A stretch of 64,000 nucleotides of DNA from Candidatus Kaiserbacteria bacterium (GTDB lineage Bacteria > Patescibacteriota > Minisyncoccia > Phycocordibacterales > UBA2100). Where the stretch lies: assembly GCA_016186765.1 (NCBI GenBank), contig JACPLD010000001.1:42560-106559 (forward strand), given 5' to 3'. Both the position numbers and the translations under genes were made by a program. This document shows, one piece after another, positions 24,151 through 55,115 of the stretch. The notes under the pieces were generated by a model, which worked only from the letters and a program-made list of their open reading frames with translations, was not told where the DNA came from and ran no database searches. Position 1 is the first letter of the stretch. Each line of letters begins with the position of its first letter.

Positions 24151-24170
24151 CCCTAGTGGCTAGTGGCTAA
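24151..24170. promoter_or_regulatory. family-1 promoter-proximal motif (CCCTAGTGGCTAGTGGCTAA; reads TTAGCCACTAGCCACTAGGG in the fba sense)
   Basis: Same motif family as 31061..31138, 35253..35302 and 55037..55115, all directly upstream of start codons in the gene's sense orientation. Confidence 0.5.
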
Positions 24171-24180
24171 TTCCTAATGA

Positions 24181-25143
24181 CTATGTACCGATGTGCCGCG
24201 TATTAATATACCGTATTGTCCTCGGATTCGAGGTCATCACGACCGAATGCGTATTTGTGTATGCCGCGCCGATCGTGACGCCTTTCACGAGAGGACCGGT
24301 CATGACCCCTGTGGCTGTGAAGCTCAAATCCTCGCCTTTCGCGAGGTCGTGCGAGCGAAACACCGTTGAAAAATCGACGATCCCGGCAGAGTTCAGCCGC
24401 GCGACGTGCTTCTCATCTTTCGGCTTCCAGCGGCAGAGTATCTCGCCGCCGAGGCACCGGAGCGCGGCTGCGCTGATAACGGCCTCAGCGCTTCCGCCGA
24501 TGCCCATAAGTATATCTACCGCCGAGCTTCCCTTGCATGTCGCGATCGCCATGGCAATATCGCCATCGGTAAAAAGCTGCACGCGCGCGCCTGTCGCGCG
24601 GACTTCGGCAATGAGAGCCTCGTGACGCGGTCGCTCGAGAATCGCCACCGTAATCTCCGAAATTTCCTTGCCGAGTGCTGAAGCTACCTTCCGCACGTTC
24701 TCTGAGGGCGTGAAATCAATGTCGATGACGGATGCTGCGCCGGGACCCACTGCAATCTTTTCCATGTATGAATCCGCAGCGCGGTATAGCGAGCCCTCGG
24801 GGCCTGTTGCGATGACCGAAATAGCATTTGTGCGCCCATACGCAACGGAGTTGGTACACTCGAGGGGATCAACCGCGATGTCAAAACGCGCTCCCGCGCC
24901 GCGACCAAGTTTCTCGCCAATGTAGAGCTCAGCGGCCTCGTCTTTGGCTCCTTCACCAATGACGATCTCGCCCCGAAAATCGATGGTGTTGAAGTACTCG
25001 CGCATCGCGTCCACCGCCGCCTGGTCGGCGGCCTTGCCGTCGCCTTTGCCGATCCATCGCGACGCCGCGATGGCGCCGACTTCTGTTACGCGCACGAACT
25101 CAAGTGCGACGTTTGCAAACACCGAGCCATTTTTTTCCGCCAT
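24181..25143 (-). CDS. glpX: fructose-1,6-bisphosphatase class II (GlpX family)
   Basis: GlpX-like sequence along its whole length (VIGEGAKDEAAELYIGEKLG, DPLECT, DGDIAMAI). Confidence 0.8.
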   Translation of the reverse strand: MAEKNGSVFANVALEFVRVTEVGAIAASRWIGKGDGKAADQAAVDAMREYFNTIDFRGEIVIGEGAKDEAAELYIGEKLGRGAGARFDIAVDPLECTNSVAYGRTNAISVIATGPEGSLYRAADSYMEKIAVGPGAASVIDIDFTPSENVRKVASALGKEISEITVAILERPRHEALIAEVRATGARVQLFTDGDIAMAIATCKGSSAVDILMGIGGSAEAVISAAALRCLGGEILCRWKPKDEKHVARLNSAGIVDFSTVFRSHDLAKGEDLSFTATGVMTGPLVKGVTIGAAYTNTHSVVMTSNPRTIRYINTRHIGT

Positions 25144-25336
25144 GGGTTCGACACATTATACACGTTTGCTCGAGCGTGTAAGGTAGGCGCAAACAGTCGT
25201 ATGCTATTGACAACGTCTTGAGTGCACGTATGATTCGCGGCGAATGTATGGTTCCAGTGCGCTGAGGGTTGTATAGACCGCAAGTGGCAGGGAAAGGGCG
25301 ATATACATCATTAGAGGAATACAACCCAACAATACA

Positions 25337-25645
25337 ATGGCTAAGAAGCTTTATGTCGGTGGTTTGCCCTACAGCACTACCGATGAAGAGTTGCGCGACG
25401 CGTTTGCGCAGGCCGGAGCTGTTTCGAGCGCCGTCGTCATCATGGACAAAATGAGTGGTCGTTCGAAGGGTTTCGGTTTCGTCGAATTTGCCAACGATGA
25501 CGACGCTACAAAGGCGATCGACATGTGGAACGGCAAAGATTTCGGCGGCCGGACCTTGACCGTGAACGAAGCTCGTCCGATGGAGCCCCGCCGCGATTCC
25601 CGCGGAGGTGGCGGCTACGGCGGTGGCAGGGGCGGCAGATGGTAA
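25337..25645 (+). CDS. RNA-binding protein with RRM domain and glycine-rich tail
   Basis: KLYVGGLPYSTTDEELRDAF (RNP2) and KGFGFVEF (RNP1); C-terminal GGGGYGGGRGG. Confidence 0.85.
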   Translation: MAKKLYVGGLPYSTTDEELRDAFAQAGAVSSAVVIMDKMSGRSKGFGFVEFANDDDATKAIDMWNGKDFGGRTLTVNEARPMEPRRDSRGGGGYGGGRGGRW

Positions 25646-25747
25646 AGACAGTGTCTTTTCGGCGCCTCGGCTCGGAAATGCATGAGCAAGACTCCTGCAT
25701 TTCCCTCGCTCTACGTTGCCGATAACAATTTGCGTCAGCGCGAATTT

Positions 25748-25788
25748 GGCAATGGCCGCGTCTCAAGACGCGGCCATTGCTTTTGTGT
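25748..25788 (+). terminator. intrinsic terminator (perfect 14-bp stem GCAATGGCCGCGTC-TCAA-GACGCGGCCATTGC plus TTTTGTGTC)
   Basis: Read directly; ~100 nt downstream of the RRM gene stop. Confidence 0.7.
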
Positions 25789-25962
25789 CGCTTTCGGCAG
25801 GCAGGCTATCCACACGGCGTGAGCGAATAAAGCTGTTCGTCGTCCATAATGGTGCGTATGGGTTTGCGCGTTGTGCCACTTCTCGGCTGGGGTATTGCGA
25901 TATACGCGGTGATGTTTCTGCTCGCATCCATATTTGCAACGTATAATTTTCAAGGAGTAACG

Positions 25963-26232
25963 ATGCGATTAGTTAGCCTTGCTGTACTTCTCACAACAGG
26001 AATCATCGCCGGCCACTCGCTCCCTGTGCATTCGTGGCGGGATATCCTCCCGTATTCGCTCTCGTGGGCTATCATTGCAGCAGTCATCGATGGGGTCATG
26101 CTCCTGCCACTTACCGGCTGGCAGGTGTATGCGAATTGGAGCGTGTGGCTCGGGTACGCGCTTGTTGTGATCGCGCCTCTGCTTGCGCACTATCCACGAT
26201 TCAACAGATTCAGCCTATCCCCCGGCGTGTGA
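25963..26232 (+). CDS. hypothetical small membrane protein
   Basis: RBS AAGGAG 7 nt upstream of ATG 25963, and a TATAAT box at 25942..25947; hydrophobic helices. Confidence 0.5.
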   Translation: MRLVSLAVLLTTGIIAGHSLPVHSWRDILPYSLSWAIIAAVIDGVMLLPLTGWQVYANWSVWLGYALVVIAPLLAHYPRFNRFSLSPGV

Positions 26233-26278
26233 ACCCCGTTGGAAAATCACGAACGCGTATTTCTTCTGTCATGCCTCT

Positions 26279-27472
26279 ATGAGCCTTTCTAACGGGGTGA
26301 ACGAATCAGCACTCCACGCGCACCGCTTTCTGCTTCGCACCGGGCTCTCGCTCGTACATGCATTTGCCTGGGTATTTATCTTTGAGTACTTTTACCTGCT
26401 TTCGACAAGCGTAGCGCGCGCGCTAGAGAGTGTAGTGCTTCTCTACGCCTTTGCACAATTTATAACGATCGTCACAACGCCAGTTTCAGCCGCCCATCTC
26501 GCAAAGGGGACGCGACGTTCTCTCGTCGTGGGCGCGCTCACTGCCGCATGCGCGTTCGTTGTGCTCGGTGCTTCATTCAGCGGGTTCTTCAATTCACCAG
26601 CGCTGTGGGGTCTCGCCCTCTTCGCAACACTGCTTGGCCTCTATCGAGCGCTCTACTTTGTACCGTACAAGCTCGTAAGTGCAGGGCCGAGCACTATCGC
26701 GCATGCACACACCTATTTCGAAGTGCTGCTCGCGCTCATGCCGCTCTTCGCCGGCCTCACCCTTGTTGGCACGCAATCTGCGCCAGCGCGGCTTCTATTC
26801 GGAGCAGGAGCAATCATCGTGCTTGCCTCGGTCATTGCGTATTTGATCCCCGACACGCGTGAGCGATTTTCATGGCCATACATATACACGTTCAAGCAGC
26901 TTTTTAGAAAGAAGAATCAGGAGCTCGTCTTGCAGTCGCTCTTAGAAGGTATGCAAGGCGCGGCGCTCTTTCTCATCTGGCCGCTCGCCATCTTTCTCAT
27001 CGTCGAGTGGTCATATGTCATGCTGGGAGTAGTCTTTAGCGTGACGCTGCTTGCGATCTTGCTCATGCGACGCTTCTATCTTTGGTTTTCTCATCGGATT
27101 AGTGTCCACGATTCACCGATCGTACACACGGTCGTTGCTGTTTCTGGATGGATCGCGAGACTTGCTGCGGGAACGCCAGTTGGCATCATCATCGCAGACG
27201 TGTACTCGTACTCAACGCTTCCCGAGCGCGGTACTCGCGTTGATCCGACGACCTTTGAGCACGTAAGCGACAGGGGTGCGTTTCTCGACGAATACACGGC
27301 ACTCAAAGAAATCGGACTCGCACTCGGACGAATCATGCTCTGCGTGCTCGTGTTCTTCCTTGCATTCGCATTTGTGCTTCCGGTCGTCCTTGCAATTGCG
27401 CTCTCGATTGCGGCCGTTGCCTCCGGGATCTCGGTCTTGGTTGCGCGACGCGGTCTTGCTCCTGCATACTAG
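26279..27472 (+). CDS. hypothetical polytopic membrane protein (transporter-like)
   Basis: ~10-12 hydrophobic segments; start taken at MSLSNGV. Confidence 0.5.
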   Translation: MSLSNGVNESALHAHRFLLRTGLSLVHAFAWVFIFEYFYLLSTSVARALESVVLLYAFAQFITIVTTPVSAAHLAKGTRRSLVVGALTAACAFVVLGASFSGFFNSPALWGLALFATLLGLYRALYFVPYKLVSAGPSTIAHAHTYFEVLLALMPLFAGLTLVGTQSAPARLLFGAGAIIVLASVIAYLIPDTRERFSWPYIYTFKQLFRKKNQELVLQSLLEGMQGAALFLIWPLAIFLIVEWSYVMLGVVFSVTLLAILLMRRFYLWFSHRISVHDSPIVHTVVAVSGWIARLAAGTPVGIIIADVYSYSTLPERGTRVDPTTFEHVSDRGAFLDEYTALKEIGLALGRIMLCVLVFFLAFAFVLPVVLAIALSIAAVASGISVLVARRGLAPAY

Positions 27473-27478
27473 CGGGCG

Positions 27479-28018
27479 ATGGCTCGCGTACTCCGCAGGA
27501 ACTTTTTTGAGCGGCGGCCGCAAACTGTCGCCCGTGAGCTTCTTGGTAAGTTCCTCGTCCGCAGGGTGGGCGGCAAGACGCGCGCGTACGTGATTACGGA
27601 AACGGAAGCCTACGATGGGACGCATGATCTCGCATGCCATGCCTCGAAGGGGCGAACCAGGCGCACGGAGGTCATGTTCGGCCCTGCGGGCTACTGGTAC
27701 GTTTATTTCGTCTACGGCATGTACGACATGCTCAACATCGTGACCGGACTGAAAGGCTACCCGTCGGCGGTTCTCATCCGCGCGTGTCAAGGTAAGACCT
27801 TGACATTGGATGGGCCGGGAAAGCTTACGCGCGAGCTTGGCATTACGCACATGATGAACGGAAAACCGGCTGTGAAATCATCAGGATTGTGGGTTGAAGA
27901 TCGTGGAGTTGAGATCAAGCTGGGAGATATAAAACGAACTCCCCGAATAGGTGTTGCCTACGCGGGGAGTTATGCCGACAAACTATGGAGGTTCGTTCTT
28001 CACAAGAGGAGAAATTGA
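27479..28018 (+). CDS. mpg: DNA-3-methyladenine glycosylase (Mpg/AAG family)
   Basis: FFERRPQTVARELLGKFLV..AYVITETEAYDG..DLACHASKGRT..MFGPAGYWYVYFVYGMYDMLNIV matches the MPG family. Confidence 0.8.
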   Translation: MARVLRRNFFERRPQTVARELLGKFLVRRVGGKTRAYVITETEAYDGTHDLACHASKGRTRRTEVMFGPAGYWYVYFVYGMYDMLNIVTGLKGYPSAVLIRACQGKTLTLDGPGKLTRELGITHMMNGKPAVKSSGLWVEDRGVEIKLGDIKRTPRIGVAYAGSYADKLWRFVLHKRRN

Positions 28019-28410
28019 CCCTTATGCTTCGGATCCTCCGGATGCTCCGTCGGCTTCGGCTTCGGCGGTACTTCACGACCTGCCGCTCGCTTGCGTGCGT
28101 CCGCGCCGCGCTTCTGTACACTGCGGTCGCTCAGGATTTTCATGACGGCACCTTTATACGCTTCAATCTTGGGTGCGCGTTCCTTGTCCTTGAGCGGAAT
28201 TGCTTCACGGACCACAGTCGCCGCAAGGAAGGGGAGAATCGTTTTCGGACTTCGACGCTCCAGCGTCGTGTTGACGAGAACACGAAGCATGTCTCGATCG
28301 ACATCCTTCGCATATTCCTTTCTTGCATACGCAACACCTACGTCAAGCTCGTAATCGCTTACGGGCTCGAAGCCAACCTCCTCTGTTTCGAGGACAGGTC
28401 TCTGGGCCAT
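28000..28410 (-). CDS. hypothetical protein
   Basis: 136-aa ORF convergent with mpg (overlapping 3' ends by 19 nt); charged, no family recognised. Confidence 0.35.
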   Translation of the reverse strand: MAQRPVLETEEVGFEPVSDYELDVGVAYARKEYAKDVDRDMLRVLVNTTLERRSPKTILPFLAATVVREAIPLKDKERAPKIEAYKGAVMKILSDRSVQKRGADARKRAAGREVPPKPKPTEHPEDPKHKGQFLLL

Positions 28411-28507
28411 TTGACACTCCTTGGATTCGAGTTGTCGGAAACACCGTACTACGCTCCCAGTATTTTGCCATCAAAATAGTCTCTTGTAAAGTTACGTTTA
28501 TTTAGCT

Positions 28508-28981
28508 CTAAGAAGTAAGAAGCTTTTGTACTACCTCTTTCACATCGTTGCCGTCGGCGCGGCCGGCGAATTCTTTCATCACGGCGCCAGTGAGCTTGCC
28601 CGCCTTCGCCGAGACTTCGGCGGGCGAGCCTGCTTCCATACCGAGTTCCTGCATTTTCTGGCGAGCGACTTCCTCGATTTCTTCGCGGCTCGCCATCTGA
28701 GGCAGATACTCCTCAATTATTTTCAGTTCTTTATTTTCTTTCTCGGCAAGCTCCGCGCGGCCGCCCTTTTCATACACCTCGGCGGCTTCCTTGCGCTGCT
28801 TCGCGAGACGCTTGAGGACAGCAACTGCGTCGGCATCAGATATTTCCTCCGTTGGTTTTCGTCCTTTGGCTACGAGCTCGTTTACGAACGCCGCGAGCGC
28901 GCCGCGCAGCGTCTGCACGCGAAGATCGTCCCTCGCTTTCATTGCGGCCGTCATGTCGGCGCGGATTTTTTGCGCAAGCAT
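28508..28981 (-). CDS. GatB/YqeY domain-containing protein
   Basis: MLAQKIRADMTAAMKARDDLRVQTLRGALAAF..; size ~157 aa typical of YqeY. Confidence 0.75.
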   Translation of the reverse strand: MLAQKIRADMTAAMKARDDLRVQTLRGALAAFVNELVAKGRKPTEEISDADAVAVLKRLAKQRKEAAEVYEKGGRAELAEKENKELKIIEEYLPQMASREEIEEVARQKMQELGMEAGSPAEVSAKAGKLTGAVMKEFAGRADGNDVKEVVQKLLTS

Positions 28982-29015
28982 GGTGCGAGTATAACACGGG
29001 TGCTAGAATCGCCGC

Positions 29016-30092
29016 ATGGATTGGCTCATTATCGTACTCTTGTTTGCGGTACTCAGCGCTCTTCTGTATCTGCTTTGGGGTAGAAACCAGACACAGGATA
29101 CACAGGGGATGCTCTTGCTTCAGCAGAGGATTCAGGAGCTTGAGAAGACGCTCGAAAACAAGCTTGGAGAGGGAACAACGAGAATGTTCGAGAGCATGCG
29201 CGCGCAGTTCGAGCAATCTCAACGACTCGTTACCGACACCCGTGATCTCGTGCATCGGCAACTCTCCGAAGTGGTTCGCGGTGTAGCCGAGACGAAGGAG
29301 TCCACAAAACAGGTCTTTACTATCGCCGAGCAGCTCCAGAATCTCGAAAAAGTGCTTACGCATCAAAAGCAACGAGGGAATCTCGGCGAGGCATCGCTCG
29401 AACTCGTCCTTTCGAACATCCTTCCGCCCGGAACGTACAAAATGCAGCATGAGTTTCCCGGAGGAGAGACGGTAGATGCAATCATACAGACGAAAGAGGG
29501 CATCATACCGATAGATGCGAAATTCTCCCTCGACAACTACAATCGGCTCGTAAACGCAGTCGACGACAGACAACGCGAAGAACTGGAGAAGCTGTTCAAG
29601 AATGACCTCAAGCTACGCATCGATGAATGCGCAAAATATGTGCGGCCGAAGGACGGGACGCTTCCGTTCGCATTCATGTACATCCCGGCGGAGGCGATTT
29701 ATTACGACCTTCTCGTGAACGAGGTGGGTGCGGTGAAAGTGAACACGAGAAACCTCATCGATTACGCATACAACGAGAAAAGGGTCATTATCGTCTCGCC
29801 AACCACCTTTGCCGCCTACCTTCAGTCGGTCCTGTACGGATTCAAAGCGTTCAAGATCGAAGAGACAGCAAAAGACATCGCGAAGAACGTTGAGAATCTC
29901 TCGCGACATCTCAAAGCCTATGAGGATTACTACAAGCGCCTTGGGAACTCGCTTTCAACGACAGTCGGCCACTACAACGCAGGCTCTAAAGAACTCGGTA
30001 AGATAGATAAAGACGTGCTTCGCATTACGGGTACCTCTGTGGAGCTTGAGTCGCCTCTTCTTGAGAAACCTTCTCTTGCGATTGATGAATAG
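29016..30092 (+). CDS. rmuC: DNA recombination protein RmuC
   Basis: N-terminal TM, coiled coil, conserved RmuC C-terminal region (FAFMYIPAEAIYYDLL..VIIVSPTTFAAYLQSV). Confidence 0.8.
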   Translation: MDWLIIVLLFAVLSALLYLLWGRNQTQDTQGMLLLQQRIQELEKTLENKLGEGTTRMFESMRAQFEQSQRLVTDTRDLVHRQLSEVVRGVAETKESTKQVFTIAEQLQNLEKVLTHQKQRGNLGEASLELVLSNILPPGTYKMQHEFPGGETVDAIIQTKEGIIPIDAKFSLDNYNRLVNAVDDRQREELEKLFKNDLKLRIDECAKYVRPKDGTLPFAFMYIPAEAIYYDLLVNEVGAVKVNTRNLIDYAYNEKRVIIVSPTTFAAYLQSVLYGFKAFKIEETAKDIAKNVENLSRHLKAYEDYYKRLGNSLSTTVGHYNAGSKELGKIDKDVLRITGTSVELESPLLEKPSLAIDE

Positions 30093-30114
30093 ACACGGTA
30101 TAGTGCCGCGACTT

Positions 30115-30432
30115 ATGGCAAAGATCGCCATCATCGAGACGGGCGGGAAGCAGTATGTTGTCACAAAGGACAGCGTTTTGAGCGTCGAGAAACTCGATGT
30201 TTCAGAAAAAGGGGATAAAGTCACGTTTGATAAAGTTTTGCTCACTGACGACGGGAGCGAGACGAAAGTTGGTTCGCCCTACATCAGTGGCGCAAAGGTC
30301 TCCGCAGAACTCATCGAAGCAGGCAAAGGTGACAAGGTGACCGTCATTCGCTACCGCCAGAAGAGTCGACATTTCGTAAAGAAGGGACACCGCCAACCGT
30401 ACGCGAAAGTGCGCATTACTGGCTTGCCCTGA
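30115..30432 (+). CDS. rplU: 50S ribosomal protein L21
   Basis: MAKIAIIETGGKQYVVTKDSVLSVEKL..VIRYRQKSRHFVKKGHRQPYAKVRI. Confidence 0.9.
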   Translation: MAKIAIIETGGKQYVVTKDSVLSVEKLDVSEKGDKVTFDKVLLTDDGSETKVGSPYISGAKVSAELIEAGKGDKVTVIRYRQKSRHFVKKGHRQPYAKVRITGLP

Positions 30433-30454
30433 GCGCAGTCGAAAGGGCGCTGCC

Positions 30455-31048
30455 CTAGCGCCTGCTTTCGAGCGCGCTCTTGAGGGTCTCCGCGTCCGCA
30501 TACTCAAGTTCGCTCCCGGTTGAAAGGCCGCGGCCCAGCGATGTAACAGTGAGTTTAAATGGACTAATTTCTTCCCGAAGCCGGACAGCTGTTGCATCAC
30601 CTTCAGGGTTGGCAGGGAAGGCGAGGATGACCTCCTTTAATCCATTTTTGGTGCGAGAGGGAAGCGAATCGAGTAGCTGTTTGATGCGCAGTCCGTTAGT
30701 TTTCTCCGACGCGAGCGAGATCGTGCCGCCTAAGACGAAATAGCTGCCTTTGTAGGTGCCGCTCTTTTCGAGCGCTGTAAGATCCGCGTTGGAGGCGACG
30801 ATCGCGAGGTGCTGCGTATCGCGCTGTGTATCCGAACAAATCGAACAGACCTTTGTTTTTGCCGAGTGGTAGCGCATGCATTCCGGGCATTGACGGACGT
30901 TCGTACCGAGAGAACGGGTTGAGTCGATAAGTTCGCGCCGAAGGGAGGGTGAGGCGCGCAGAAGGAATTGCACGAATCGCTGCGCCTGCCGAGGGCCGAT
31001 ACCGGGGAATTTCTCAAAGAGGGAAGTCAACCGCTCGATTGCATCCAT
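30455..31048 (-). CDS. recR: recombination protein RecR
   Basis: LTSLFEKFPGIGPRQAQR (HhH), C4 zinc finger CPECMRYHSAKTKVCSIC, Toprim region. Confidence 0.9.
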   Translation of the reverse strand: MDAIERLTSLFEKFPGIGPRQAQRFVQFLLRASPSLRRELIDSTRSLGTNVRQCPECMRYHSAKTKVCSICSDTQRDTQHLAIVASNADLTALEKSGTYKGSYFVLGGTISLASEKTNGLRIKQLLDSLPSRTKNGLKEVILAFPANPEGDATAVRLREEISPFKLTVTSLGRGLSTGSELEYADAETLKSALESRR

Positions 31049-31060
31049 ACGTTAGTTGTT

Positions 31061-31138
31061 AGCCAATAGGGTATAGCCAATAGGAAAACATGAAAAACAT
31101 CCCAATCACTATACCCTAAACCCTAGTGGCTAGTGGCT
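31061..31138. promoter_or_regulatory. family-1 inverted-repeat promoter module upstream of recR (arms AGCCAATAGGGTATAGCCAATAGG / TATACCCTAAACCCTAGTGGCTAGTGGCT)
   Basis: Read directly; occupies the recR-dnaB intergenic gap; in the recR sense it reads AGCCACTAGCCACTAGGGTTTAGGGTATAGTG then CCTATTGGCTATACCCTATTGGCTAA before the ATG. Confidence 0.5.
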
Positions 31139-31141
31139 GAT

Positions 31142-32524
31142 TTAAAACGGTGCTTCCTGCTCCACTTCCGCCTCCGGCGTAAAGTCGCCGAAGTCACTCT
31201 TGTCGATGGAGAGGAAGGTCGTACGCTGCTCGTCGAAGCGAAGCTCGATCCTCCCGGTAGGACCGTTCCGATGTTTTTCTACCAAAATCTCGGCGATGCC
31301 GGGACGGTCGGAATTTTCGTTCATTTTGTCGTCGCGGTGAATGAACATTACGACATCGGAGTCCTGCTCGAGGGAACCCGAGTCGCGAAGGTCTGAAAGA
31401 CGCGGCCGCCCGCGCCGCTGCTCGACGGCGCGCGAAAGCTGTGAGAGCGCAAGCACTGGCACATCGAGCTCTCGCGCCATCGCCTTAAGCGAGCGCGAAA
31501 TTTCTGTGACCTGCTGCACCATCGAGTCGCTGACTCGTGTGTACGAGGGTGTGATGAGCTGGAGATAATCGATGATGACAAGGCCGAGGTCCCGTTCCAC
31601 CTTGAGGCGGCGTGCCACCGAGCGCATCTGCAGGACGGTCGAGGAGGGCTTGTCGTCGATGTAGATCGGGGCCTCTGAAAGTACGCTCAAGCCCGCCTGA
31701 AGACGTCCGAATTCCTCGTCGCTCCTAATTTTTCCCGTGCGCAACTTCCACGAATCGACGCCGGCTTGCGCCGCAAGCATGCGATCGACGAGCTGCTGCG
31801 AACTCATTTCGAGACTAAAGATCCCAACCGATGTGCCGTGCTTCGTTGCCGTCTTTCGCGCGATGTCGAGGGCAAGTGCGGTCTTTCCCATGGAAGGGCG
31901 TGCCGCGAGGAGAATGAGATCGGACTTCTGCAAGCCAGCGAGAAGATTGTCGAGCTGCGTGAAGCCAGTAGGAATGCCGCGCAAAGTTGCTTCGTGCTTC
32001 TGCAGATGCTCGAGCCGCTCCCACGCTTCGGTGAGCTCGTCTTTGATCGCGCGGAACGAGCGGAGCATCGGTGTTTGCGAGACGCTGAAGACGGCCGACT
32101 GCGCCTCGTCGAGCGTCGTTGCAATGTCCTTATCTTCCTCGAAGCCGAGCTCATGGATTTTCGCAGCTGCATCGATGAGGCTACGCAACACGAACTTCGT
32201 CTGCACGACCTCGGCATAGTGGCGGGCGCTTCCGGGTGAGGCAGCGGCAGAAACGAGCTCGGAAAGGTAGGCTGCGCCGCCGATCTCCCCGAGAAGTTTG
32301 CGCTGCTTGAGCTTACCCGAGACTGTCACCACGTCGATGGGCTCGCCCTTGCTGTGTAGGCTAAGCATCGCATCGTAGATGGTGCGGTGCTTGCCCACGT
32401 AGAAGGAGTCAACACCGACGACGTCGGCGACTTCGTACATCGCGTTTTGGTTTAGCATGAGTGCGCCAAGCAGCGCACGCTCGGTTTCGGTGTCTTGCGG
32501 CGGGACGCGCAAAGGCTTGTTCAT
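31142..32524 (-). CDS. dnaB: replicative DNA helicase DnaB
   Basis: N-terminal DnaB domain (PPQDTETERALLGALMLN), RecA-like core with Walker A (ARPSMGKTALAL), 460 aa, no intein. Confidence 0.9.
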   Translation of the reverse strand: MNKPLRVPPQDTETERALLGALMLNQNAMYEVADVVGVDSFYVGKHRTIYDAMLSLHSKGEPIDVVTVSGKLKQRKLLGEIGGAAYLSELVSAAASPGSARHYAEVVQTKFVLRSLIDAAAKIHELGFEEDKDIATTLDEAQSAVFSVSQTPMLRSFRAIKDELTEAWERLEHLQKHEATLRGIPTGFTQLDNLLAGLQKSDLILLAARPSMGKTALALDIARKTATKHGTSVGIFSLEMSSQQLVDRMLAAQAGVDSWKLRTGKIRSDEEFGRLQAGLSVLSEAPIYIDDKPSSTVLQMRSVARRLKVERDLGLVIIDYLQLITPSYTRVSDSMVQQVTEISRSLKAMARELDVPVLALSQLSRAVEQRRGRPRLSDLRDSGSLEQDSDVVMFIHRDDKMNENSDRPGIAEILVEKHRNGPTGRIELRFDEQRTTFLSIDKSDFGDFTPEAEVEQEAPF

Positions 32525-32589
32525 GAGAGCATCGTACCACGCGTATTTTCCGCTGCTCGTTCACCGATGGAGGCAGCTTTGTTCCTTTT

Positions 32590-33702: not shown

Positions 33703-33764
33703 TGACCAAATTCCAAGAGACAATAACCAAAGGAACTCTTTCCGTGTTTTCCTCATTTTGGTGA

Positions 33765-35249
33765 TTGTTTCTTGAGTTTTGGAGCTTCCTCAATGATAGT
33801 ATTGAGGTCATGGCTTTTCAAATTCCTGGCGTCGGGGAGGAGCGAGAGCGACAGCAGCAGTGGGGACTTGGCTCGCATGTCCTGCGCGGTATCGTTGCCG
33901 AGATAGTCAGCCTCGATCTAAAGGTATTCGTCGAAGGAACGATCGGTAACCTCCTCGGCATCTCGCGCGGCACCTTCCTCACTTCGATTTTTATCGGACT
34001 CCTCTTATCGCTCTGGGGCTTGATCCCGAATCTTCCGTTCTTCATCTTCGCGTGGGTAGTGGGGACTATGCCGATCTGGATCTTGCCTGCAGCAGTAGGT
34101 GGCGCTTGGAAGGCCTGGATCTGGTACGTGCAGGCATACTTTATTACTCGCCGAGAGCCCTTACTCCTTGAAGTAAAAATGCCTCGCGAGCTCGTCAAAT
34201 CTCCTCGCGGGATGGAGCTCGCGCTTGCACAGCTGTGGATACTCTCTGGCGAGACGACGTATTTCCACCGTAAGTGGCTCGGCCAGGTGCGTCCCGTCTT
34301 CTCTTTCGAGATCGTGAGCTTCGGCGGCGATGTTCGCTTTTACATCTGGCTGTGGAAAGCGTACCGGAAGGTCGTCGAATCGGCCATCTATGCGCAGTAC
34401 CCTGAAGTAGAAATCGTCGAGGCGGAGGACTACGCGATGAAGTACGTCTACGATCCTTCGAAACACGCGGTATTCTGCACCGACTACCGCTACGAACCAC
34501 GCAATGACGCCTATCCAATAAAGACCTACATCGAGTTCGAGCTCGATGAGGATCCGAAGGAAGAATATAAGGTTGACCCGCTCGCACAGGTGATCGAGCG
34601 CCTAAGCTCACTCGGGCCCGACGAGCAGATCTGGCTTCAGATTGTTATCTCGTTGGACAACGAACAGAGACGGAAGCCGGGGGGACGATATTGGGAGACG
34701 GAACCCCGCTTCCGAGGTATTGCGGAGGCAGAAGTCGACAAGCTCCGCAAGTCGATCATAGGAGATTTTGAGAAGCCGGGGCAGGAATGGAGACGCTACT
34801 CGCGCGTGGCACTGTATCGCGTTACCGAACAGATCAAAGCGATCGAGCGCAATATGGGTAAACATCCCTACCACGTCGGGATGCGCGGAGTATGGATCTC
34901 GAATCCGGAGAATTTTGGCCCGCAAGGCTTTAACAGCATGCGTTGGATCTGGCTTCCCATGGGGAATCCGCAATACCTGAATCAAATGCGTCCACGTCGC
35001 TGGCACACACCCTTCGACTATCCTTACCAGGATCTCTGGGACTTTCGTTGGAACCTTCACGCCGAGCGTTTTTTTGATTGCTACCGCAGACGCGCGCACT
35101 TCTATGCGCCGTACACGCTTCCCGACAATGTTATGTCGACGGAAGTTATAGCAACATTCTGGCATCCCATCTCGACAGCGATCGCATCGCCCGGCGTGCA
35201 GCGAATTCCGGCGAAGAAAGCGCAGCCGCCACCGAATTTGCCAAAGTAA
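33765..35249 (+). CDS. hypothetical membrane protein (N-terminal TM helices plus a large Trp/Tyr/Arg-rich soluble domain)
   Basis: Long ORF, hydrophobic N-terminal third, no recognisable domain. Confidence 0.5.
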   Translation: MFLEFWSFLNDSIEVMAFQIPGVGEERERQQQWGLGSHVLRGIVAEIVSLDLKVFVEGTIGNLLGISRGTFLTSIFIGLLLSLWGLIPNLPFFIFAWVVGTMPIWILPAAVGGAWKAWIWYVQAYFITRREPLLLEVKMPRELVKSPRGMELALAQLWILSGETTYFHRKWLGQVRPVFSFEIVSFGGDVRFYIWLWKAYRKVVESAIYAQYPEVEIVEAEDYAMKYVYDPSKHAVFCTDYRYEPRNDAYPIKTYIEFELDEDPKEEYKVDPLAQVIERLSSLGPDEQIWLQIVISLDNEQRRKPGGRYWETEPRFRGIAEAEVDKLRKSIIGDFEKPGQEWRRYSRVALYRVTEQIKAIERNMGKHPYHVGMRGVWISNPENFGPQGFNSMRWIWLPMGNPQYLNQMRPRRWHTPFDYPYQDLWDFRWNLHAERFFDCYRRRAHFYAPYTLPDNVMSTEVIATFWHPISTAIASPGVQRIPAKKAQPPPNLPK

Positions 35250-35252
35250 GTT

Positions 35253-35302
35253 AGCCACTAGCCATTAGGGTTTAGGGTATAGTGTATTTCACTAGTGGCT
35301 AA
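35253..35302. promoter_or_regulatory. family-1 promoter module upstream of mltG (AGCCACTAGCCATTAGGGTTTAGGGTATAGTG ... CACTAGTGGCTAA), with a -10-like TATAGT 28 nt before the ATG
   Basis: Read directly. Confidence 0.5.
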
Positions 35303-35310
35303 TTATCTTC

Positions 35311-36345: not shown

Positions 36346-36422
36346 AAGACACAAGAGACAAGATACAATAACCAAACTAGTTTGGAGCTTGTTTCTTGGT
36401 GTTTGGTTATTACACTGTGCCG

Positions 36423-37475: not shown

Positions 37476-37484
37476 AATGTATCC

Positions 37485-38348: not shown

Positions 38349-38397
38349 ATTCACACATTTGCCTTTTGCCCTTTGCTTTTTGCCTTAGAATTAAGGT

Positions 38398-38922
38398 ATG
38401 CCTACTCCCGAAAGCTTCTTGGATCCGAACATTGTCGTTTTTGGGAAACTTCTGCTTGCGATGGTGCTCGGCGGCATCATCGGGACTGAGCGCGCCGTCA
38501 TCGCCAAGCAAGCTGCGGGCACGCGCACGTTTGGGCTCGTCTCGCTCGGCGCATGTCTTTTTATCGTTGTAGGGAGCTATGTCGACACCGCCTACCTCGG
38601 GATTCTTTCTTTTGATCCGCTGCGCATCGGCGCGGCCGTTATTATGGGCATCGGCTTTTTGGGCGGGGGGCTCATTATCTTTCGAGGCGACTCACTCCAT
38701 GGCGTGACGACAGCCGCGGGCCTCTGGATCGTCTCTGGGATCGGCATGGCCGTGGGTTTTGGCATGTACAGCGTTTCCATCTTCGCGACACTCCTCGCGC
38801 TCATCATGTTCACCGGCATGTGGTACGTGGAAAATCGCTTCAAGCACTGGTTCGAAGATCACGAGCTCGTACGGCCAGATCATCAGAACGAGACACAAAA
38901 TCACACTACTAGCACGTCATAA
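38398..38922 (+). CDS. mgtC: MgtC/SapB family membrane protein
   Basis: LLLAMVLGGIIGTERAVIAKQAAGTRTFGLVSLGACLF, typical MgtC N-terminal domain. Confidence 0.75.
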   Translation: MPTPESFLDPNIVVFGKLLLAMVLGGIIGTERAVIAKQAAGTRTFGLVSLGACLFIVVGSYVDTAYLGILSFDPLRIGAAVIMGIGFLGGGLIIFRGDSLHGVTTAAGLWIVSGIGMAVGFGMYSVSIFATLLALIMFTGMWYVENRFKHWFEDHELVRPDHQNETQNHTTSTS

Positions 38923-40031: not shown

Positions 40032-40614
40032 GAAGTACGAGAAGATGAAACAGATTCGGGATGAGGTGGTCGCGCTTCAAGGTGGACTGGCGGATTACCG
40101 GCGGGAGAACAACTACCACGCGGTCTTGGGGGAGGGAAGCCATGATGCGAAAATTATGTTCATCGGTGAAGCGCCGGGACAGAACGAGGCGAAAACGGGG
40201 CGACCTTTTTGTGGCGCTGCGGGCAAACTTCTCGATCAATTGCTCGAAGGAATAGGCGTCCCACGCGATAGTGTCTACATCACCAACATCGTGAAGGATA
40301 GGCCGCCGGGAAATCGCGATCCCTTGCCAAGCGAGATCGAGCTCTACGCGCCCTTCCTCGACAGGCAGATCGAAATTATCCAGCCAAAGTGCATCTCGAC
40401 GCTCGGCCGCTTCTCGATGGAGTACATCATGCGAAAGTTTGGTCTCTCATTCGAGCTCGAGCCCATCAGCCGCGCGCATGGCAAAAGCTACGAAGCAGAG
40501 ACCTCGTGGGGCCCGATGAAAATCGTCCCCCAATACCATCCCGCCGCCGCGATTTATAACCAATCCCTCGTCGAAACCCTCAAAAAAGATTTTCAGATCC
40601 TAAAAACCATCTAG
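40021..40614 (+). CDS. udg: uracil-DNA glycosylase, family 4
   Basis: IMFIGEAPGQNE..GRPFCGAAGKLL..HPAAAIY motifs of type-4 UDG. Confidence 0.8.
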   Translation: MSGEKYEKMKQIRDEVVALQGGLADYRRENNYHAVLGEGSHDAKIMFIGEAPGQNEAKTGRPFCGAAGKLLDQLLEGIGVPRDSVYITNIVKDRPPGNRDPLPSEIELYAPFLDRQIEIIQPKCISTLGRFSMEYIMRKFGLSFELEPISRAHGKSYEAETSWGPMKIVPQYHPAAAIYNQSLVETLKKDFQILKTI

Positions 40615-40619
40615 CCACT

Positions 40620-40647
40620 ATATTCTAATTCGCGCGAATTAGAATAT
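40620..40647. repeat. perfect 28-bp palindrome CTATATTCTAATTCGCGCGAATTAGAATATAG between convergent genes
   Basis: Read directly; no adjoining U-tract, so it is a bidirectional terminator or a protein-binding site. Confidence 0.4.
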
Positions 40648-40755
40648 AGGCATGAATACCTCCGCAAGGATTTTCAGGTGTTGAAAGAGATATAAAAAGC
40701 CACCCCCTCGCGCAAGACGAGAGTTTGGCTCTTTGTCCCGCGAGGGGGATATGGA

Positions 40756-41031: not shown

Positions 41032-41164
41032 GGCCGTATCCTCCGTTTGCCGCGCAGATAGTACAACACGGTGCAACGTTCGTCAACCAAAACTCCTCTG
41101 CAAGGATTTGAGGATGTTGACGAAAGTGCTTGGAGTTACCGCGTAGTCGAGGTATAAAGTCGCC

Positions 41165-44582: not shown

Positions 44583-44660
44583 ACAGAAAACATCAAACAG
44601 AGAACAGAAAATCCCAAAGTATTATCCCTTGTCCACTGTTCACTGTTCTCTGTTCTCTGT
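44582..44660. promoter_or_regulatory. family-2 inverted-repeat module (AACAGAAAACATCAAACAGAGAACAG ... CCACTGTTCACTGTTCTCTGTTCTCTG) ending at TATACT, 9 nt before the next ATG
   Basis: Read directly; a paralogous module lies at 48487..48574 upstream of rpsD. Confidence 0.5.
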
Positions 44661-48478: not shown

Positions 48479-48486
48479 TTATCAGC

Positions 48487-48574
48487 AAACAGAAAACAGA
48501 GAACAGTATGAATGCGGCAAGAAAATTATCGTACGATCAGAGTTTCTGTTCACTGTTCACTGTCCACTGTTCAC
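48487..48574. promoter_or_regulatory. family-2 inverted-repeat module upstream of rpsD (AACAGAAAACAGAGAACAG ... CTGTTCACTGTTCACTGTCCACTGTTCAC)
   Basis: Read directly; paralogue of 44582..44660. Confidence 0.5.
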
Positions 48575-48583
48575 TATCCTGAT

Positions 48584-49189
48584 ATGTTGCCGATAAAATC
48601 GAAATACAAGATCGCGAAGAGACTGGGACCTGCGATTTTTGAGCAAACGCAAACGCAGAAATTCGCGCTCTCGGACGCCCGTGCGAAAAAGTCTCGGCCG
48701 CGCCGCCGCGGCGCTTCTGATTACGGTCGGCAGCTGCTCGAGAAGCAGCGCGTTCGCTACACGTATGGCATCACCGAGTCGCAGCTCGCAAACTACGTAA
48801 AAAAGGCTTACACGACAGCTGATCCTTCCACGAGCCTCCACAAGATGCTCGAGATGCGTGCAGACTCGATTGTCTACCGCGCAGCGCTCGCGCCCACGCG
48901 GCGCGCGGCGCGACAGCTTGTGAGTCACGGCCATATCCTCGTGGGCAGCGTACGCATCACGACTCCTTCCTACCGTCTCAACAAGGGAGATACGCTCAGT
49001 GTTCGGGAGGGAAGCCGCCGAGGGCCGCTCTTTGCGGTTCAAAGCGAGGAAGGTGAGACGCGGCAGGTGCCACAGTGGCTTTCGGTAGACCGGGAGACAC
49101 TCTCGATAAAGGTGACAGGCGAGCCTCTGTATGGTCCGGCCGAAACGACTCTCGACTACAAAACAGTATTTGAGTTTTACAGTCGATAA
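48584..49189 (+). CDS. rpsD: 30S ribosomal protein S4
   Basis: MLPIKSKYKIAKRLGPAIFEQTQ.. with an S4 RNA-binding domain. Confidence 0.9.
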   Translation: MLPIKSKYKIAKRLGPAIFEQTQTQKFALSDARAKKSRPRRRGASDYGRQLLEKQRVRYTYGITESQLANYVKKAYTTADPSTSLHKMLEMRADSIVYRAALAPTRRAARQLVSHGHILVGSVRITTPSYRLNKGDTLSVREGSRRGPLFAVQSEEGETRQVPQWLSVDRETLSIKVTGEPLYGPAETTLDYKTVFEFYSR

Positions 49190-52023: not shown

Positions 52024-53889
52024 ATGGCACGAATCCTGGGCATAGATTTAGGAACAACGAACTCCGCGATGGCGGCCGTTATGGTGGGCGAGCCCGAGAT
52101 CATTGAGAACGCCGAGGGCGCACGCACGACGCCCTCCGTCGTCGCGATCTCAAAGACCGGCGAAAAACTCGTCGGTCTCCTTGCGAAACGCCAGGCGGTC
52201 ACAAACCCGAAAAACACGGTCTATCAGATCAAACGCTTCATCGGACACACCTTCGACGAACCGGGTGTTGCGAAAGACCGCGAATCAGTGCCATTCGAAG
52301 TACGTAAATCGGATGGGGGTATCCAGGTGCAAATGGGTGAGAAATGGTACCGACCGGAAGAAATTTCTGCGATGATCCTCCAAAAGTTGAAGCAGGACGC
52401 CGAAGCGCGTCTCGGCGAGACGATCACCGAAGCCGTCATCACCGTCCCTGCCTACTTCAACGACTCTCAGCGACAGGCCACCAAAGATGCGGGCAGGATC
52501 GCGGGATTGGACGTAAAGCGCATCATCAACGAGCCTACCGCGGCCGCGCTCGCGTACGGCTTCAACAAAAAGAAAAATGAGAAAATCGTCGTCTTCGACT
52601 TCGGCGGCGGCACCTTTGACATCTCGGTGCTGGAAGTGGGAGACGACGTCATCGAAGTTCGCTCGACCGACGGCGATTCACATCTCGGCGGCAAGGATTT
52701 GGACCAAAAAATCATGAATTGGATCGCCGACGAGTTCAAAAAAGAAAGCGGCATTGATGTACGCAACGACCCACTCGCGCGCCAGCGCCTCGATGAGGCT
52801 GCTGAGAAGGCAAAAATCGAGCTCTCGACGGCGCTCGAAAGCGAGATAAACATCCCATTCATCACCTCTGACGCTTCTGGACCCCGACACCTCTTGATCA
52901 AGATGACACGGGCAAAACTCGAAGAGCTCGCCAGCGAATTCATTGAGCGCGCGATGGCGATTACGAAGCGCGCCATGGACGCATCGCCCTTTGCTGTAGG
53001 CGATATCAACGAAGTCGTCCTCGTCGGCGGCCAAACGCGCATGCCAGCACTTCAGAAGTCTGTTGAACAATTTTTCGCAAAGAAACCGCACATGGGCGTG
53101 AACCCGGATGAAGTCGTCGCAATTGGTGCGGCAATACAGGGAGGAATACTGCGGGGCGATGTGAAGGACGTGCTCCTTCTCGATGTCATCCCGCTCTCAC
53201 TCGGCATTGAAACCCTCGGCGGTGTGGCGACCAAACTCATCGAACGAAACACCACGATCCCGACCTCACGCGCACAGACCTTCTCGACCGCATCGGACAA
53301 TCAACCTTCGGTCGAGATCCATGTGGTGCAAGGCGAGCGCCCAATGGCCGCCGACAACAAATCGCTCGGTCGCTTCAACCTCGACGGCATTCCTCCTGCG
53401 CCGCGCGGCATGCCCCAGATCGAAGTCAGCTTCGACATCGACGCAAACGGTATCCTCACGGTGAAAGCGAAGGATAAAACAACGAACAAGGAGCAATCTA
53501 TCCGCATCGAGGGCTCGTCTGGCCTCTCGGAAACCGACATCGAGAAGATGCGTAAGGATGCCGAAGCGAACGCCGAAGCCGATCGGAAAAAGAAAGAGCT
53601 CGTCGAGGCACAGAATGCCGCCGATCAACTCGTCTACGCGGCAGAGAAAGCGCTCAAAGAGCACGGGGGGAAGGTGGGCGATGATATTAGGAAAAATGTG
53701 CAGGAGAAAATCGACGCGCTCAAAACTATACGTGGTCGTTCCGACGTACATGCCATCAAGTCTGGCTCCGATGCACTCTCAAGCGCGATGAGTGCGATAG
53801 GCGAAGCGATGTCCAAAAGGGAGCAGCCTCCACCGAGCGACCAACCCGGGCGTCCAGGCGAATCCGGTGATGAGCCACCAAAGCCATAA
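52024..53889 (+). CDS. dnaK: molecular chaperone DnaK (Hsp70)
   Basis: [41 protein letters not shown] and other Hsp70 signatures. Confidence 0.97.
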
Positions 53890-53941
53890 GAATGAAGAGG
53901 TGCCTTTGCATTGCTCCTTGGGCTGTCTATAATGGGACGCG

Positions 53942-55027
53942 ATGAAAGATTATTACTCCATCCTCGGCGTTTCCAAGACGGCAACAGAAGAAGAAATAAA
54001 GAGTGCGTTCAGAAAACTAGCACATAAGTATCACCCCGACAAGAAAGGCGGCGATGAGAAGAAATTCAAAGAGGTAAGTGAGGCTTACGCGGTTCTTTCC
54101 GACAAAAAGAAGCGCGCCGAATACGACACCCACGGCCGCACCTTCGCAGGCGGAGGGCCGGGAAGCGGGGGTTTTGCTGGCTTCGACTTCGCCGACTTCG
54201 CTCGACGCGGCGGGTTCGAGAGTTTCCCGGGAGGCGGTCAGGCGTTTGAGTTTGATCTCGGCGATATCTTTGGCGAATTTTTCGGCGGTTCACCCCGAGC
54301 AAAGTCGAGGGGCAGGGATATCTCGATCGATATAGAGTTACCCTTCCGCGAGAGCGTGTTCGGCACGGAGCGCCGCATTCTCATCGCAAAGCAAGCCGTG
54401 TGTGCGACCTGCGGCGGCGGAGGTGCGAAAAAAGGATCGAAGCTCATCACCTGCACAACGTGCAATGGCAAAGGCGATATCCGCGAAACGCGCAGCTCAT
54501 TCTTCGGCACGTTCACGACAAGCCGCACGTGTCCACGCTGCAACGGCCGCGGCGAAGTACCAGAAATGCCTTGTGAGACGTGTCGCGGCGAAGGCGTAAC
54601 GAAGCGCGAAGAGGAGATACGCGTGGTGGTCCCCGCCGGCGTTGAAGACGGTGAAATGATCCGCATGCCGCGTATGGGAGAAGTGGCTCCCGGCGGAGCC
54701 TCCGGCGACCTCTATGTGAAGGTCCATGTGCGTGCGGATCGTGCATTCGCGCGCGACGGCAACAATCTCGTCACGGTGCTGCCTATCAGGCTCACCGACG
54801 CGCTGCTTGGGGGCGAATACCGCATCAAATCGCTCGACGGAGAGGAGCTGCTCACGGTTCCAGCAGGCGTTTCTCACGGAGAGATACTTCGCATACGCGG
54901 GAAGGGCGTCCCATTCGACAGAGGCATGCGCGGCGATCTCTTGGTTCGCATCGACATAGAATTCCCAAAACGACTCTCGAAGAGCGCACGCGATCTGATA
55001 GAAAAACTGCGCAAGGAGGGGTTGTAG
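53942..55027 (+). CDS. dnaJ: molecular chaperone DnaJ
   Basis: J domain with HPD (KYHPDKK), Gly/Phe region, four CxxCxGxG zinc repeats. Confidence 0.95.
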   Translation: MKDYYSILGVSKTATEEEIKSAFRKLAHKYHPDKKGGDEKKFKEVSEAYAVLSDKKKRAEYDTHGRTFAGGGPGSGGFAGFDFADFARRGGFESFPGGGQAFEFDLGDIFGEFFGGSPRAKSRGRDISIDIELPFRESVFGTERRILIAKQAVCATCGGGGAKKGSKLITCTTCNGKGDIRETRSSFFGTFTTSRTCPRCNGRGEVPEMPCETCRGEGVTKREEEIRVVVPAGVEDGEMIRMPRMGEVAPGGASGDLYVKVHVRADRAFARDGNNLVTVLPIRLTDALLGGEYRIKSLDGEELLTVPAGVSHGEILRIRGKGVPFDRGMRGDLLVRIDIEFPKRLSKSARDLIEKLRKEGL

Positions 55028-55036
55028 TCAGCTCAT

Positions 55037-55115
55037 AGCCACTAGCCAATAGGGTTTAGGGTTGCGGTATACTTTAGGCAATGGATTTCTCTAGTGGCTA
55101 TACCCTAGTGGCTAA
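55037..55115. promoter_or_regulatory. family-1 inverted-repeat promoter module (AGCCACTAGCCAATAGGGTTTAGGGTT..GGTATACT ... CTAGTGGCTATACCCTAGTGGCTAA) overlapping the called start of the next gene
   Basis: Read directly; the ATG at 55081 lies inside the module, so the true start of the downstream gene may lie further downstream. Confidence 0.45.

Follow-up and report, generated by a model that had tools for sequence, protein, structure and literature searches.

Paired arrays of TAG-phased heptanucleotide repeats in the intergenic spacers of a Candidatus Kaiserbacteria genome

The window analyzed here is a 64-kb stretch (64,000 nt, 54% GC) of the genome of a Candidatus Kaiserbacteria bacterium, and contigs identical to it are present in Logan assemblies of runs SRR12113384 to SRR12113422. 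Near-identical blocks of repeated sequence, here called family 1, occupy the spacers ahead of fba, recR, mltG, and an open reading frame (ORF) for a membrane protein, and a variant of them occupies the one ahead of scpB (flanking genes were named by Pfam). An earlier examination of the DNA letters alone, below called the sequence-only reading, rightly described these genes as functionally unrelated. It took the blocks for inverted-repeat modules of about 30 nt, representing either a strong promoter or operator architecture shared by these genes or a dispersed miniature repeat captured as promoters. The second half of that proposal is borne out to the extent that the repeat is dispersed, both in the genome of the window and over at least 100 loci of other genomes.

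Heptamer modules in the spacers of the window

All of the occupied spacers separate co-directional gene pairs. Two are on the minus strand (glpX-fba, with a class-I fba, and dnaB-recR) and three are on the plus strand (DUF8128-mltG, where MltG is of the YceG type, dnaJ-membrane ORF, and scpA-scpB). The blocks that had been reported around 24151, 31061, 35253, and 55037 are indeed there and are well above chance. With at most one mismatch allowed, CTAGTGGCTA matches the window 14 times versus 1.23 ± 0.87 times in shuffles, and with at most three mismatches TAGGGTTTAGGGTATA matches four times against 0.08 expected. Every match is intergenic and in a short spacer, and none falls inside a Pfam-supported gene. 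A repeat search groups the copies into families D1 and D8 and inverted pairs I4, I7, and I10. Pair I4 joins 31107-31144 to 35247-35284 with 92% complementarity over 38 nt, 35 of the 38 nt being shared, including the preceding TAA.

The repeating unit is a heptamer rather than a block of some 30 nt. Tandem Repeats Finder reports period 7 at 24153, 31123, 35266, and 63709, custom scans give this period too, and the units in the window (TAGCCAC, TAGCCAA, TAGGGTT, and TAGGGTA) have a fixed TAG. A full module comprises an arm of three to five TAG-phased units and a CTA-phased arm, with a variable centre of about 10-45 nt between them (Table 1). Pairing with an inverted copy had been described as usual, and it holds for three of the five copies, the fba and scpB copies being single-armed. 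What had been listed as a weaker variant at scpB proves to be a genuine array of five TAG-phased units between ScpA and ScpB. The motif CTAGTGGCTAG, which had been considered palindromic, is not its own reverse complement, a property confined to its CTAG core. The centres of the three paired copies are unrelated in sequence.

Modules take up the whole spacer from stop to start codon and lie downstream of one gene as much as upstream of another. There is no clear Shine-Dalgarno sequence at the genes that follow modules in the window. After dnaJ, the start of the next ORF (ATG 55081 or GTG 55108) falls within the module, giving an N-terminus of MDFSSGYTLVAN... Codon statistics score the frame of ATG 55081 at 0.24 per codon, versus -0.31 and -0.23 for the two rival frames, and so place the ORF in this frame, with the CTA arm translated as its N-terminus.

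A related fragment had also been proposed at 40611-40622. One TAGCCAC unit does occur there, but its TAG is the stop codon of the UDG gene, in a convergent gap, and we regard it as a doubtful member of the family. Directly after this unit, 40619-40648 form a perfect 30-nt palindrome, TATATTCTAATTCGCGCGAATTAGAATATA, that is unrelated to the heptamers and is partly kept in the syntenic relative L119. This palindrome is a candidate bidirectional terminator.

Table 1. Heptamer arrays in the window. Family-1 copies come first, then the doubtful member, then arrays of other units; arms are written in the sense of the flanking genes, and folds are in kcal/mol.
Feature	Positions	Strand	Boundaries	5' arm or units	Centre and 3' arm	RNA fold
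glpX-fba, single arm	24149..24183	-	first TAG is the glpX stop; array ends 2 nt short of fba ATG (24146)	TAGTCAT TAGGAAT TAGCCAC TAGCCAC TAGGGAA, then tt ATG		none, z = +0.37
dnaB-recR, full module, 93 nt	31049..31141	-	dnaB TAA 31142-31144 to recR ATG 31048	31105-31139, after TAA and at: CAGCCAC TAGCCAC TAGGGTT TAGGGTA TAGTGAT	centre 31088-31104; CTA arm 31053-31087: CTATTGG CTATACC CTATTGG CTAACAA CTAACGT, then recR ATG	-30.3, z = -2.9
DUF8128-mltG module	35250..35310	+	DUF8128 TAA 35247-35249 to mltG/YceG ATG 35311	35252-35286, after TAA and gt: TAGCCAC TAGCCAT TAGGGTT TAGGGTA TAGTGTA	short arm 35288-35301: TTCACTA GTGGCTA, then attatcttc and mltG ATG	-16.8, z = -2.2
dnaJ-membrane ORF module	55028..55114	+	follows dnaJ stop TAG 55025-55027	55036-55063, after tcagctca: TAGCCAC TAGCCAA TAGGGTT TAGGGTT	centre 55064-55086, containing ATG 55081; 3' arm 55087-55114: TTCTCTA GTGGCTA TACCCTA GTGGCTA	-28.9, z = -1.7
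scpA-scpB, single arm, 5 units	63709..63740	+	scpA stop TGA (63705-63707) and a, to scpB ATG (63741)	TAGGTTA TAGGGAC TAGGTTC TAGGTTT TAGC		none
Doubtful member, one unit	40612..40618	+	TAG is the UDG stop codon; convergent gap	TAGCCAC		
Sigma-70-like gene-DUF8128 module (CCAAGAG / CTCTTGG type)	33703..33790	+		CCAAATT CCAAGAG	TTTTGGT GATTGTT TCTTGAG	z = -3.6
mltG-mnmA module	36346..36412	+		AAGACAC AAGAGAC AAGATAC	CTTGTTT CTTGGTG TTTGGTT	
Inverted module (AACAGAG / CTGTTCA type; repeats D5, D17, I13)	44583..44660	+		AACAGAR arm	YCTGTTC arm	
Second copy of AACAGAR/YCTGTTC module	48479-48589					
Single-arm array (repeat family D2)	38355..38386	+		(C/T)TTTGCC units		
Array related to (C/T)TTTGCC (TTTTGCC)	7387-7414	-	in carA end	CAAAAGG CAAAGGG CAAAAGG CAAAAGT		
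CAAGAAA-unit array	9985			CAAGAAA units		

Units, polarity, and turnover across genomes

The wider set of loci comes from a scan for exact AGCCACTAGCCANTAGGG in a collection of one genome per prokaryotic species, in the whole of which a random 17-mer would be expected to match about 70 times. The scan gave at least 118 loci. The genome of the window is not among them, and these loci plus the window are the basis for the rules on units, polarity, gaps, distances, and pairing that follow. Among the 122 matches listed, 103 have either a partner CTA arm or four or more TAG units in phase, and several genomes contribute three to seven loci each. At least 77 loci are in Patescibacteria of many candidate phyla (33-59% GC), at least 11 in Phycisphaerae (54-71% GC), and at least seven in archaea. 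The archaeal metagenome-assembled genome (MAG) contigs with TAGCCAC/TAGGG units are L075, L079, L065, L073, L095, and L005, of which L065 and L073 are not confirmed as archaeal. Both L075 and L079 encode S-layer glycoproteins (MEMAR_RS02690 and HVO_2072 families), L075 also an archaeal-type phosphoglycerate mutase (apgM), and L005 has a gene for a homoaconitase-family protein. The viral collection IMG/VR gave a single, doubtful hit for the family-1 repeat. A cyanobacterial origin of the window, suspected from text rich in CGATCG, was rejected: GCGATCGC occurs just five times, and the relatives are Patescibacteria. The nearest named locus among the matches listed belongs to a Candidatus Kaiserbacteria MAG (L074), and MltG identity to the syntenic relatives is 83% for L119 and L120, 76% for L121, and 61% for L039.

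Among trinucleotides phased with period 7 in these loci, TAG ranks first, with at least 272 arrays. The unit set consists of TAG followed by CCAC, CCAA, CCAT, GGTT, GGTA, GGAA, GGAT, or GGAC, and has the consensus TAG-S-S-W-N. Among the loci listed, to which the counts in this paragraph refer, arms of three, four, and five units number 75, 85, and 90, and those of six units just 12. A TAG arm is followed by a CTA arm in 42 cases and the reverse order is seen in two, which means that the TAG strand points inward from both sides. This strand is also directed away from the nearest gene 121 times versus 34 (p = 1e-12), at 3' and 5' gene edges alike. Arrays are present in 82 of 396 co-directional gaps (21%), 22 of 103 convergent gaps (21%), and 11 of 122 divergent gaps (9%), and the first two occupancies differ from the third with Fisher p = 0.003 and 0.013, respectively. 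The median distance is 5.5 nt from the upstream stop to the array and 27 nt from the array to the downstream start. In 24 of 82 cases the upstream stop is itself a TAG of the array, with an offset of -3 in 12 of them and -10 in the other 12. The modules sit in transcribed but untranslated spacers, at or beside the upstream stop.

The two arms of a module tend to differ in the order of their units. An arm of the form TAGCCAN-TAGCCAN-TAGGG (AAB) is paired with one of the form TAGCCAN-TAGGGNN-TAGCCA (ABA) 13 times, versus three pairings with its own type, and a common asymmetric form has TAGCCAC-TAGCCAN-TAGGGNN on one side and TAGCCAC-TAGGGTA-TAGCCAC on the other. The orientation of this AAB/ABA module relative to the flanking genes is divided 4:4, and a fixed orientation to transcription was rejected on this ground. 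The sense orientation to the downstream gene that had been pointed out earlier is true of every copy in the window, but it does not extend to these other loci. Modules lie in either orientation to transcription and bring no gene- or strand-specific signal.

The paired modules have folds of -17 to -30 kcal/mol (z = -1.7 to -3.6); the single arms have none. The two strands fold alike (-27.43 kcal/mol for sense versus -27.41 for antisense, p = 0.83), which led us to reject a sense-strand RNA structure. Collinearity is no higher between true partner arms than between random ones (0.56 versus 0.60), a result that rejects both a simple palindromic duplication and selection for a perfect hairpin. The sequences flanking arm cores are more alike within a genome (0.44) than between genomes (0.36, p = 2.5e-5). 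Some genomes, such as CAYGHQ and L037, have centres that are partly related to one another, and in several others a perfect GC-rich tetraloop hairpin forms the centre. Long homogeneous runs of units occur in L004, L054, and L111.

Orthologous junctions reveal how readily these spacers change. The C-terminus of DnaB (...APF*) and the N-terminus of RecR are conserved in the window, L119, L121, and L039, and the spacer between their genes holds the 93-nt family-1 module in the window, 2 nt in L119, 21 nt in L121, and 141 nt with an AAGTATC/GATACTT module in L039. Between DUF8128 and mltG, the family-1 module of the window is replaced by a module of AGCTGCG/CGCAGCT heptamers in L119, by 9 nt in L121, and by a module of other units in L039. 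The spacer between the sigma factor gene and DUF8128 has a CCAAGAG module in the window and a TAGCCAC/TAGGG module in L039. Since orthologous spacers differ in the presence, length, and unit type of their modules, the modules are optional and exchangeable between sites and have no ties to particular genes; they are gained, lost, and switched in unit at orthologous junctions. Comparison of the dnaB-recR module with the empty junction of L119 reveals no target-site duplication, although the two genomes have diverged.

Assembly ends were noticed in the same region. L129 and L131, two independent short-read assemblies of the same strain, both end at window position 31138, inside the dnaB-recR module, and L127 and L128, also short-read assemblies of that strain, end at 25519. 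In practical terms, the modules fragment short-read assemblies. They also provide stop codons and even N- or C-terminal coding sequence, and gene callers and motif-based promoter prediction can be misled by them in uncultured genomes.

Origin and possible roles of the modules

On a slight balance of probability, we take the modules to be dispersed intergenic heptamer repeats of the kind that includes short tandemly repeated repetitive (STRR) sequences, (GGGANTN)n arrays, and TAACTGA repeats, with a placement like that of repetitive extragenic palindromic (REP) sequences and bacterial interspersed mosaic elements (BIMEs). They could originate through slipped-strand amplification in 7-nt steps, combined with copying or gene conversion between sites in the genome, and would persist where they are least harmful. 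Since the unit length of 7 nt is not divisible by 3, three TAG units give stops in all three frames. A TAG arm would in this way end any upstream frame within three units, and the CTA arm would stay open and might even encode an N-terminus. If the modules affect expression, they would probably do so in a generic and not a gene-specific way, for example when an imperfect hairpin uncouples adjacent cistrons.

Among long simple repeats in the intergenic DNA of prokaryotes, heptanucleotide repeats are the most over-represented, as has been known since 1990 and 2007, and they have no accepted origin or function. Work by Mazel and colleagues in 1990 reportedly described cyanobacterial STRR heptamers with the units CCCCAGT, TTGGTCA, and CAACAGT. 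As in that system, several heptamer families per genome are dispersed in intergenic DNA here; unlike it, the units and the host lineage are others, and STRR arrays, which have gone without explanation for decades, can be much longer. REP/BIME sequences of enterobacteria, which include REPINs, have units of 35-40 nt without a 7-nt periodicity and are mobilized by REP-associated tyrosine transposases (RAYTs); no RAYT gene was seen here, though no search aimed at one was made. The modules resemble them in forming imperfect palindromes and inverted pairs with variable linkers in transcribed spacers, either within operons or between convergent genes. Two later papers (PMC4692102, PMC4679880) credit Mrázek et al. 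(2007) with the finding that no long simple repeats in prokaryotes are more abundant than heptamers, and with the proposal that these arise by polymerase slippage.

The closest parallels come from two further systems. Xanthomonas (GGGANTN)n arrays mostly have four units and form 70-75 convergent pairs per genome; they are 89-93% intergenic, with about 28 nt separating them from the upstream ORF and 160 nt from the downstream ORF; convergent ORFs flank 16% of them and divergent ORFs 7-8%, and they vary between species and have no known function (Rehm et al. 2015, PMC4692102). Nostoc has GGGGA(C/T)T heptamer repeats of the same kind (PMC4692102). The modules match the Xanthomonas arrays in their roughly four-unit size, convergent pairing, intergenic location nearer to the end of the upstream ORF, preference for co-directional over divergent gaps, independence of gene function, and variation between relatives, and some of their units (GGGACTA, GGGATTA, and GGGAATA) fit GGGANTN. 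They differ in their invariant TAG, in having C-rich (GCCAC) and G-rich (GGGTT) units on one strand, and in being hosted by the candidate phyla radiation (CPR) with units common to several phyla and domains. The quadruplex proposed for Xanthomonas, which would take at least four G-tracts per arm, was rejected here, for arms with only about two or three G-tracts cannot form it.

TAACTGA direct repeats of marine Beggiatoaceae, cyanobacteria, and Bacteroidetes supply all-frame stops, overlap upstream stop codons, and precede genes that mostly lack a Shine-Dalgarno sequence (MacGregor 2015, PMC4679880). Their sets are nearly all direct and "forward" with respect to the downstream gene, one inverted set being reported (PMC4679880). 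Our modules likewise carry stops in three frames, are mostly intergenic, overlap upstream stops, end a few nucleotides before start codons of unrelated genes, and are distributed patchily across phyla with no known mechanism of transfer. In contrast to TAACTGA repeats, inverted pairs dominate, orientation to genes is not fixed, and the unit sequence is another. None of the described units (CCCCAGT, TTGGTCA, CAACAGT, GGGAATC, or TAACTGA) is matched by those found here, which therefore form a new unit set within the heptanucleotide-repeat kind, and our literature search found no description of heptamer repeats in Patescibacteria or Phycisphaerae. New as well are their prominence in streamlined CPR genomes, where they occupy about one-third of co-directional spacers of at least 25 nt, and the recurrence of one stop-codon unit set across phyla and both prokaryotic domains. 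Integron attC sites were rejected as an identity for the modules, which do not match the core-site consensus and lie among syntenic housekeeping genes.

Several observations weigh against an origin as dispersed slippage repeats. Identical heptamers occur at 33-71% GC in CPR phyla, Phycisphaerae, and methanogen-type archaeal contigs, and undirected slippage does not predict such identity across phyla, which points instead to a constraint or binding factor in common or to horizontal spread. Arms of three to five units, inward polarity beside start codons, and the AAB/ABA arrangement look like a more defined element than a free microsatellite. In a streamlined genome of about 1 Mb, the presence of 60-140-nt modules in about one-third of the co-directional spacers suggests a benefit or active spread. 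Five contigs of the same species show no length polymorphism, but as they are 100% identical they carry little information on it. Cross-domain units, strict polarity, arm length, and AAB/ABA pairing are left unexplained by slippage, and transposon-like and protein-binding explanations consequently stay alive. Any model will be constrained by the inward TAG polarity, the 3-5-unit arms, the AAB/ABA pairing, the lack of strand bias, and the existence of filled and empty versions of one junction.

Two rivals invoke control of gene expression. That the modules are strong promoters or operators shared by unrelated genes is now highly improbable. All window copies precede a gene on the same strand, and the hexamers TATAGT and TATACT, which had been seen as -10 elements, do occur; one of them (TATACT at 55068-55073) is 7 nt before ATG 55081, a geometry that would fit a leaderless transcript. 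These hexamers are by-products of the junction between TAGGGTA and the next TAG, however, and the TTATGA proposed as a -10 at fba contains the fba ATG itself. A scan of 24000-39000 for σ70-type -35/-10 pairs with 16-18-nt spacing found none in the fba, recR, and mltG modules and detected a canonical TTGACA-16-TATGAT in the divergent gap at 25207; at the dnaJ module, a check by hand matched the -35 consensus at only one or two of six positions. Convergent gaps hold no promoter and divergent gaps hold only promoters, so the distribution of the arrays is the reverse of what promoters predict. The modules also abut upstream stops, have no fixed orientation to genes, and are absent or different at orthologous genes, the conservation in relatives that promoters should display being contradicted by dnaB-recR spacers of 2, 21, 93, and 141 nt. 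Individual copies may nevertheless have weak promoter activity. Functional RNA hairpins in polycistronic transcripts, which would set the relative expression of neighbours by partial termination, RNase III cleavage, or stabilization of 3' ends, are a less implausible but still quite unlikely explanation. The folding of paired modules, their REP-like location in operons and convergent gaps with depletion from divergent ones, and the GC-rich tetraloop hairpins at the centres in several other genomes all accord with it. Against this stand the equal folding of the two strands, arms without module-specific complementarity, the unfolded single arms at fba and scpB, and close relatives whose same junctions have no module. 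In addition, the scan of 24000-39000 for intrinsic terminators (GC-rich stem and U-tract) found none at the fba, recR, and mltG modules; a T-rich run follows the dnaJ module, which lies outside the scanned region. An Rfam scan of the whole window matched tRNA-Ala only and gave no family for these repeats.

The other rivals call on proteins that act on the DNA or RNA of the units. Whole modules or single arms could be non-autonomous mobile elements, of the miniature inverted-repeat transposable element (MITE), REPIN, or BIME type, inserted at gene junctions, with the arms serving as terminal or subterminal sites for a transposase or recombinase acting in trans. We consider this unlikely. In its favour are filled and empty orthologous junctions, two distinct ends (AAB and ABA) in either orientation, inward polarity as from inverted terminal repeats, greater likeness of arms within than between genomes, related centres in some genomes, and contigs that break inside a module. 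The three unrelated centres in the window speak against it, as do the long homogeneous runs that resemble slippage, the single match in the viral collection, and the lack of an evident target-site duplication at the one junction with an empty counterpart, a comparison weakened by divergence. There is also no transposase among about 40 window ORFs scanned with Pfam, the sole recombinase being the serine type beside tRNA-Ala. HutP is known as a protein of the Bacillota that acts at a single operon. By analogy, the modules might be binding arrays for a HutP-like oligomeric protein that reads XAG in single-stranded RNA at 4-nt spacing and controls termination or translation globally where genes meet, a notion we regard as very unlikely. 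HutP binds two sets of three UAG/XAG motifs of period 7, separated by a linker of 12-17 nt that flanks a stem (Gopinath et al. 2008, PMC2425495). The 5' arms have the same triplet spacing and period, (UAG N4) three to five times ahead of a centre of about 10-45 nt, against (UAG N4)x3, linker, and (XAG N4)x3 on hut mRNA, and 5' arms of other unit types in the window contain phased CAG or AAG. The frequent final C of TAGCCAC creates CTAG, with the result that a CTA-ending unit followed by G makes UAG appear in the transcript of the 3' arm too, and a protein that reads the units could explain their recurrence across phyla. The likeness is one of pattern only, and no HutP- or TRAP-like gene was found, although no search was aimed at one. 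AG is common by chance in a heptamer, the modules are dispensable at orthologous sites, and, unlike the one dedicated regulatory site in Bacillus, there are many sites per genome with half of the arms CUA-phased. A broader and likewise rather unlikely conjecture is that TAGCCAC/TAGGGNN arrays are a conserved "intergenic punctuation" of CPR bacteria, Phycisphaerae, and methanogenic archaea at any GC content. Such arrays would be kept by a conserved factor (for example, a HutP-like ring protein) or spread by copying across domains, and their inward all-frame stops and arms of four to five units would be functional.

Other arrays and elements in the window

At least seven further spacers of the window contain period-7 arrays made of other units (Table 1). 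A strong period-7 signal is present in about one-third of the co-directional gaps of at least 25 nt and in no divergent gap. The array at the end of carA is free of stops, lies inside the last ~13 codons of the gene just before carB, and is translated through as a Lys-rich C-terminal tail. Between L119 and L120, the mltG-mnmA spacers differ by a 14-nt indel. Inside the mnmA homologue of these near-identical contigs (L119 7625-7690, L120 11195-11260) is a palindromic block, TTCGGGTTTCGTAAACCCGAATATTCGGGTTTACGAAACCCGAATATG, that has indels at its flanks.

A tRNA-Ala gene at 11117-11190 is directly followed by a perfect 133-nt inverted repeat (11186-11318 / 12856-12988) that encloses an ORF for a large serine recombinase on the minus strand (11144-12715; Resolvase, Recombinase, and Zn_ribbon_recom domains). 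More inverted repeats are found at 12981-13014/14654-14687 and 13063-13127/14589-14653. The region 11117-14687 represents an element integrated at the tRNA gene or else a fold-back artefact of the assembly.

A separate dispersed intergenic motif, CCTCYGCAAGGATTT(T/G)NRGRTGTTGA, is found at 40659-40684 and 41095-41120 and is kept in relatives, at 11520-11560 of L119 and at three sites in 16472-18222 of L121, where the copies have an inserted GC-rich hairpin. It has no Rfam match and may belong to a further repeat family or encode a small structured RNA. Finally, a 27-nt GC-rich hairpin-like motif, TGYCCGCCTWCGCCRAGRCTYCGGCGG, is present in three copies (8500-8526, 28597-28623, and 36788-36814), at least two of which are apparently inside ORFs.

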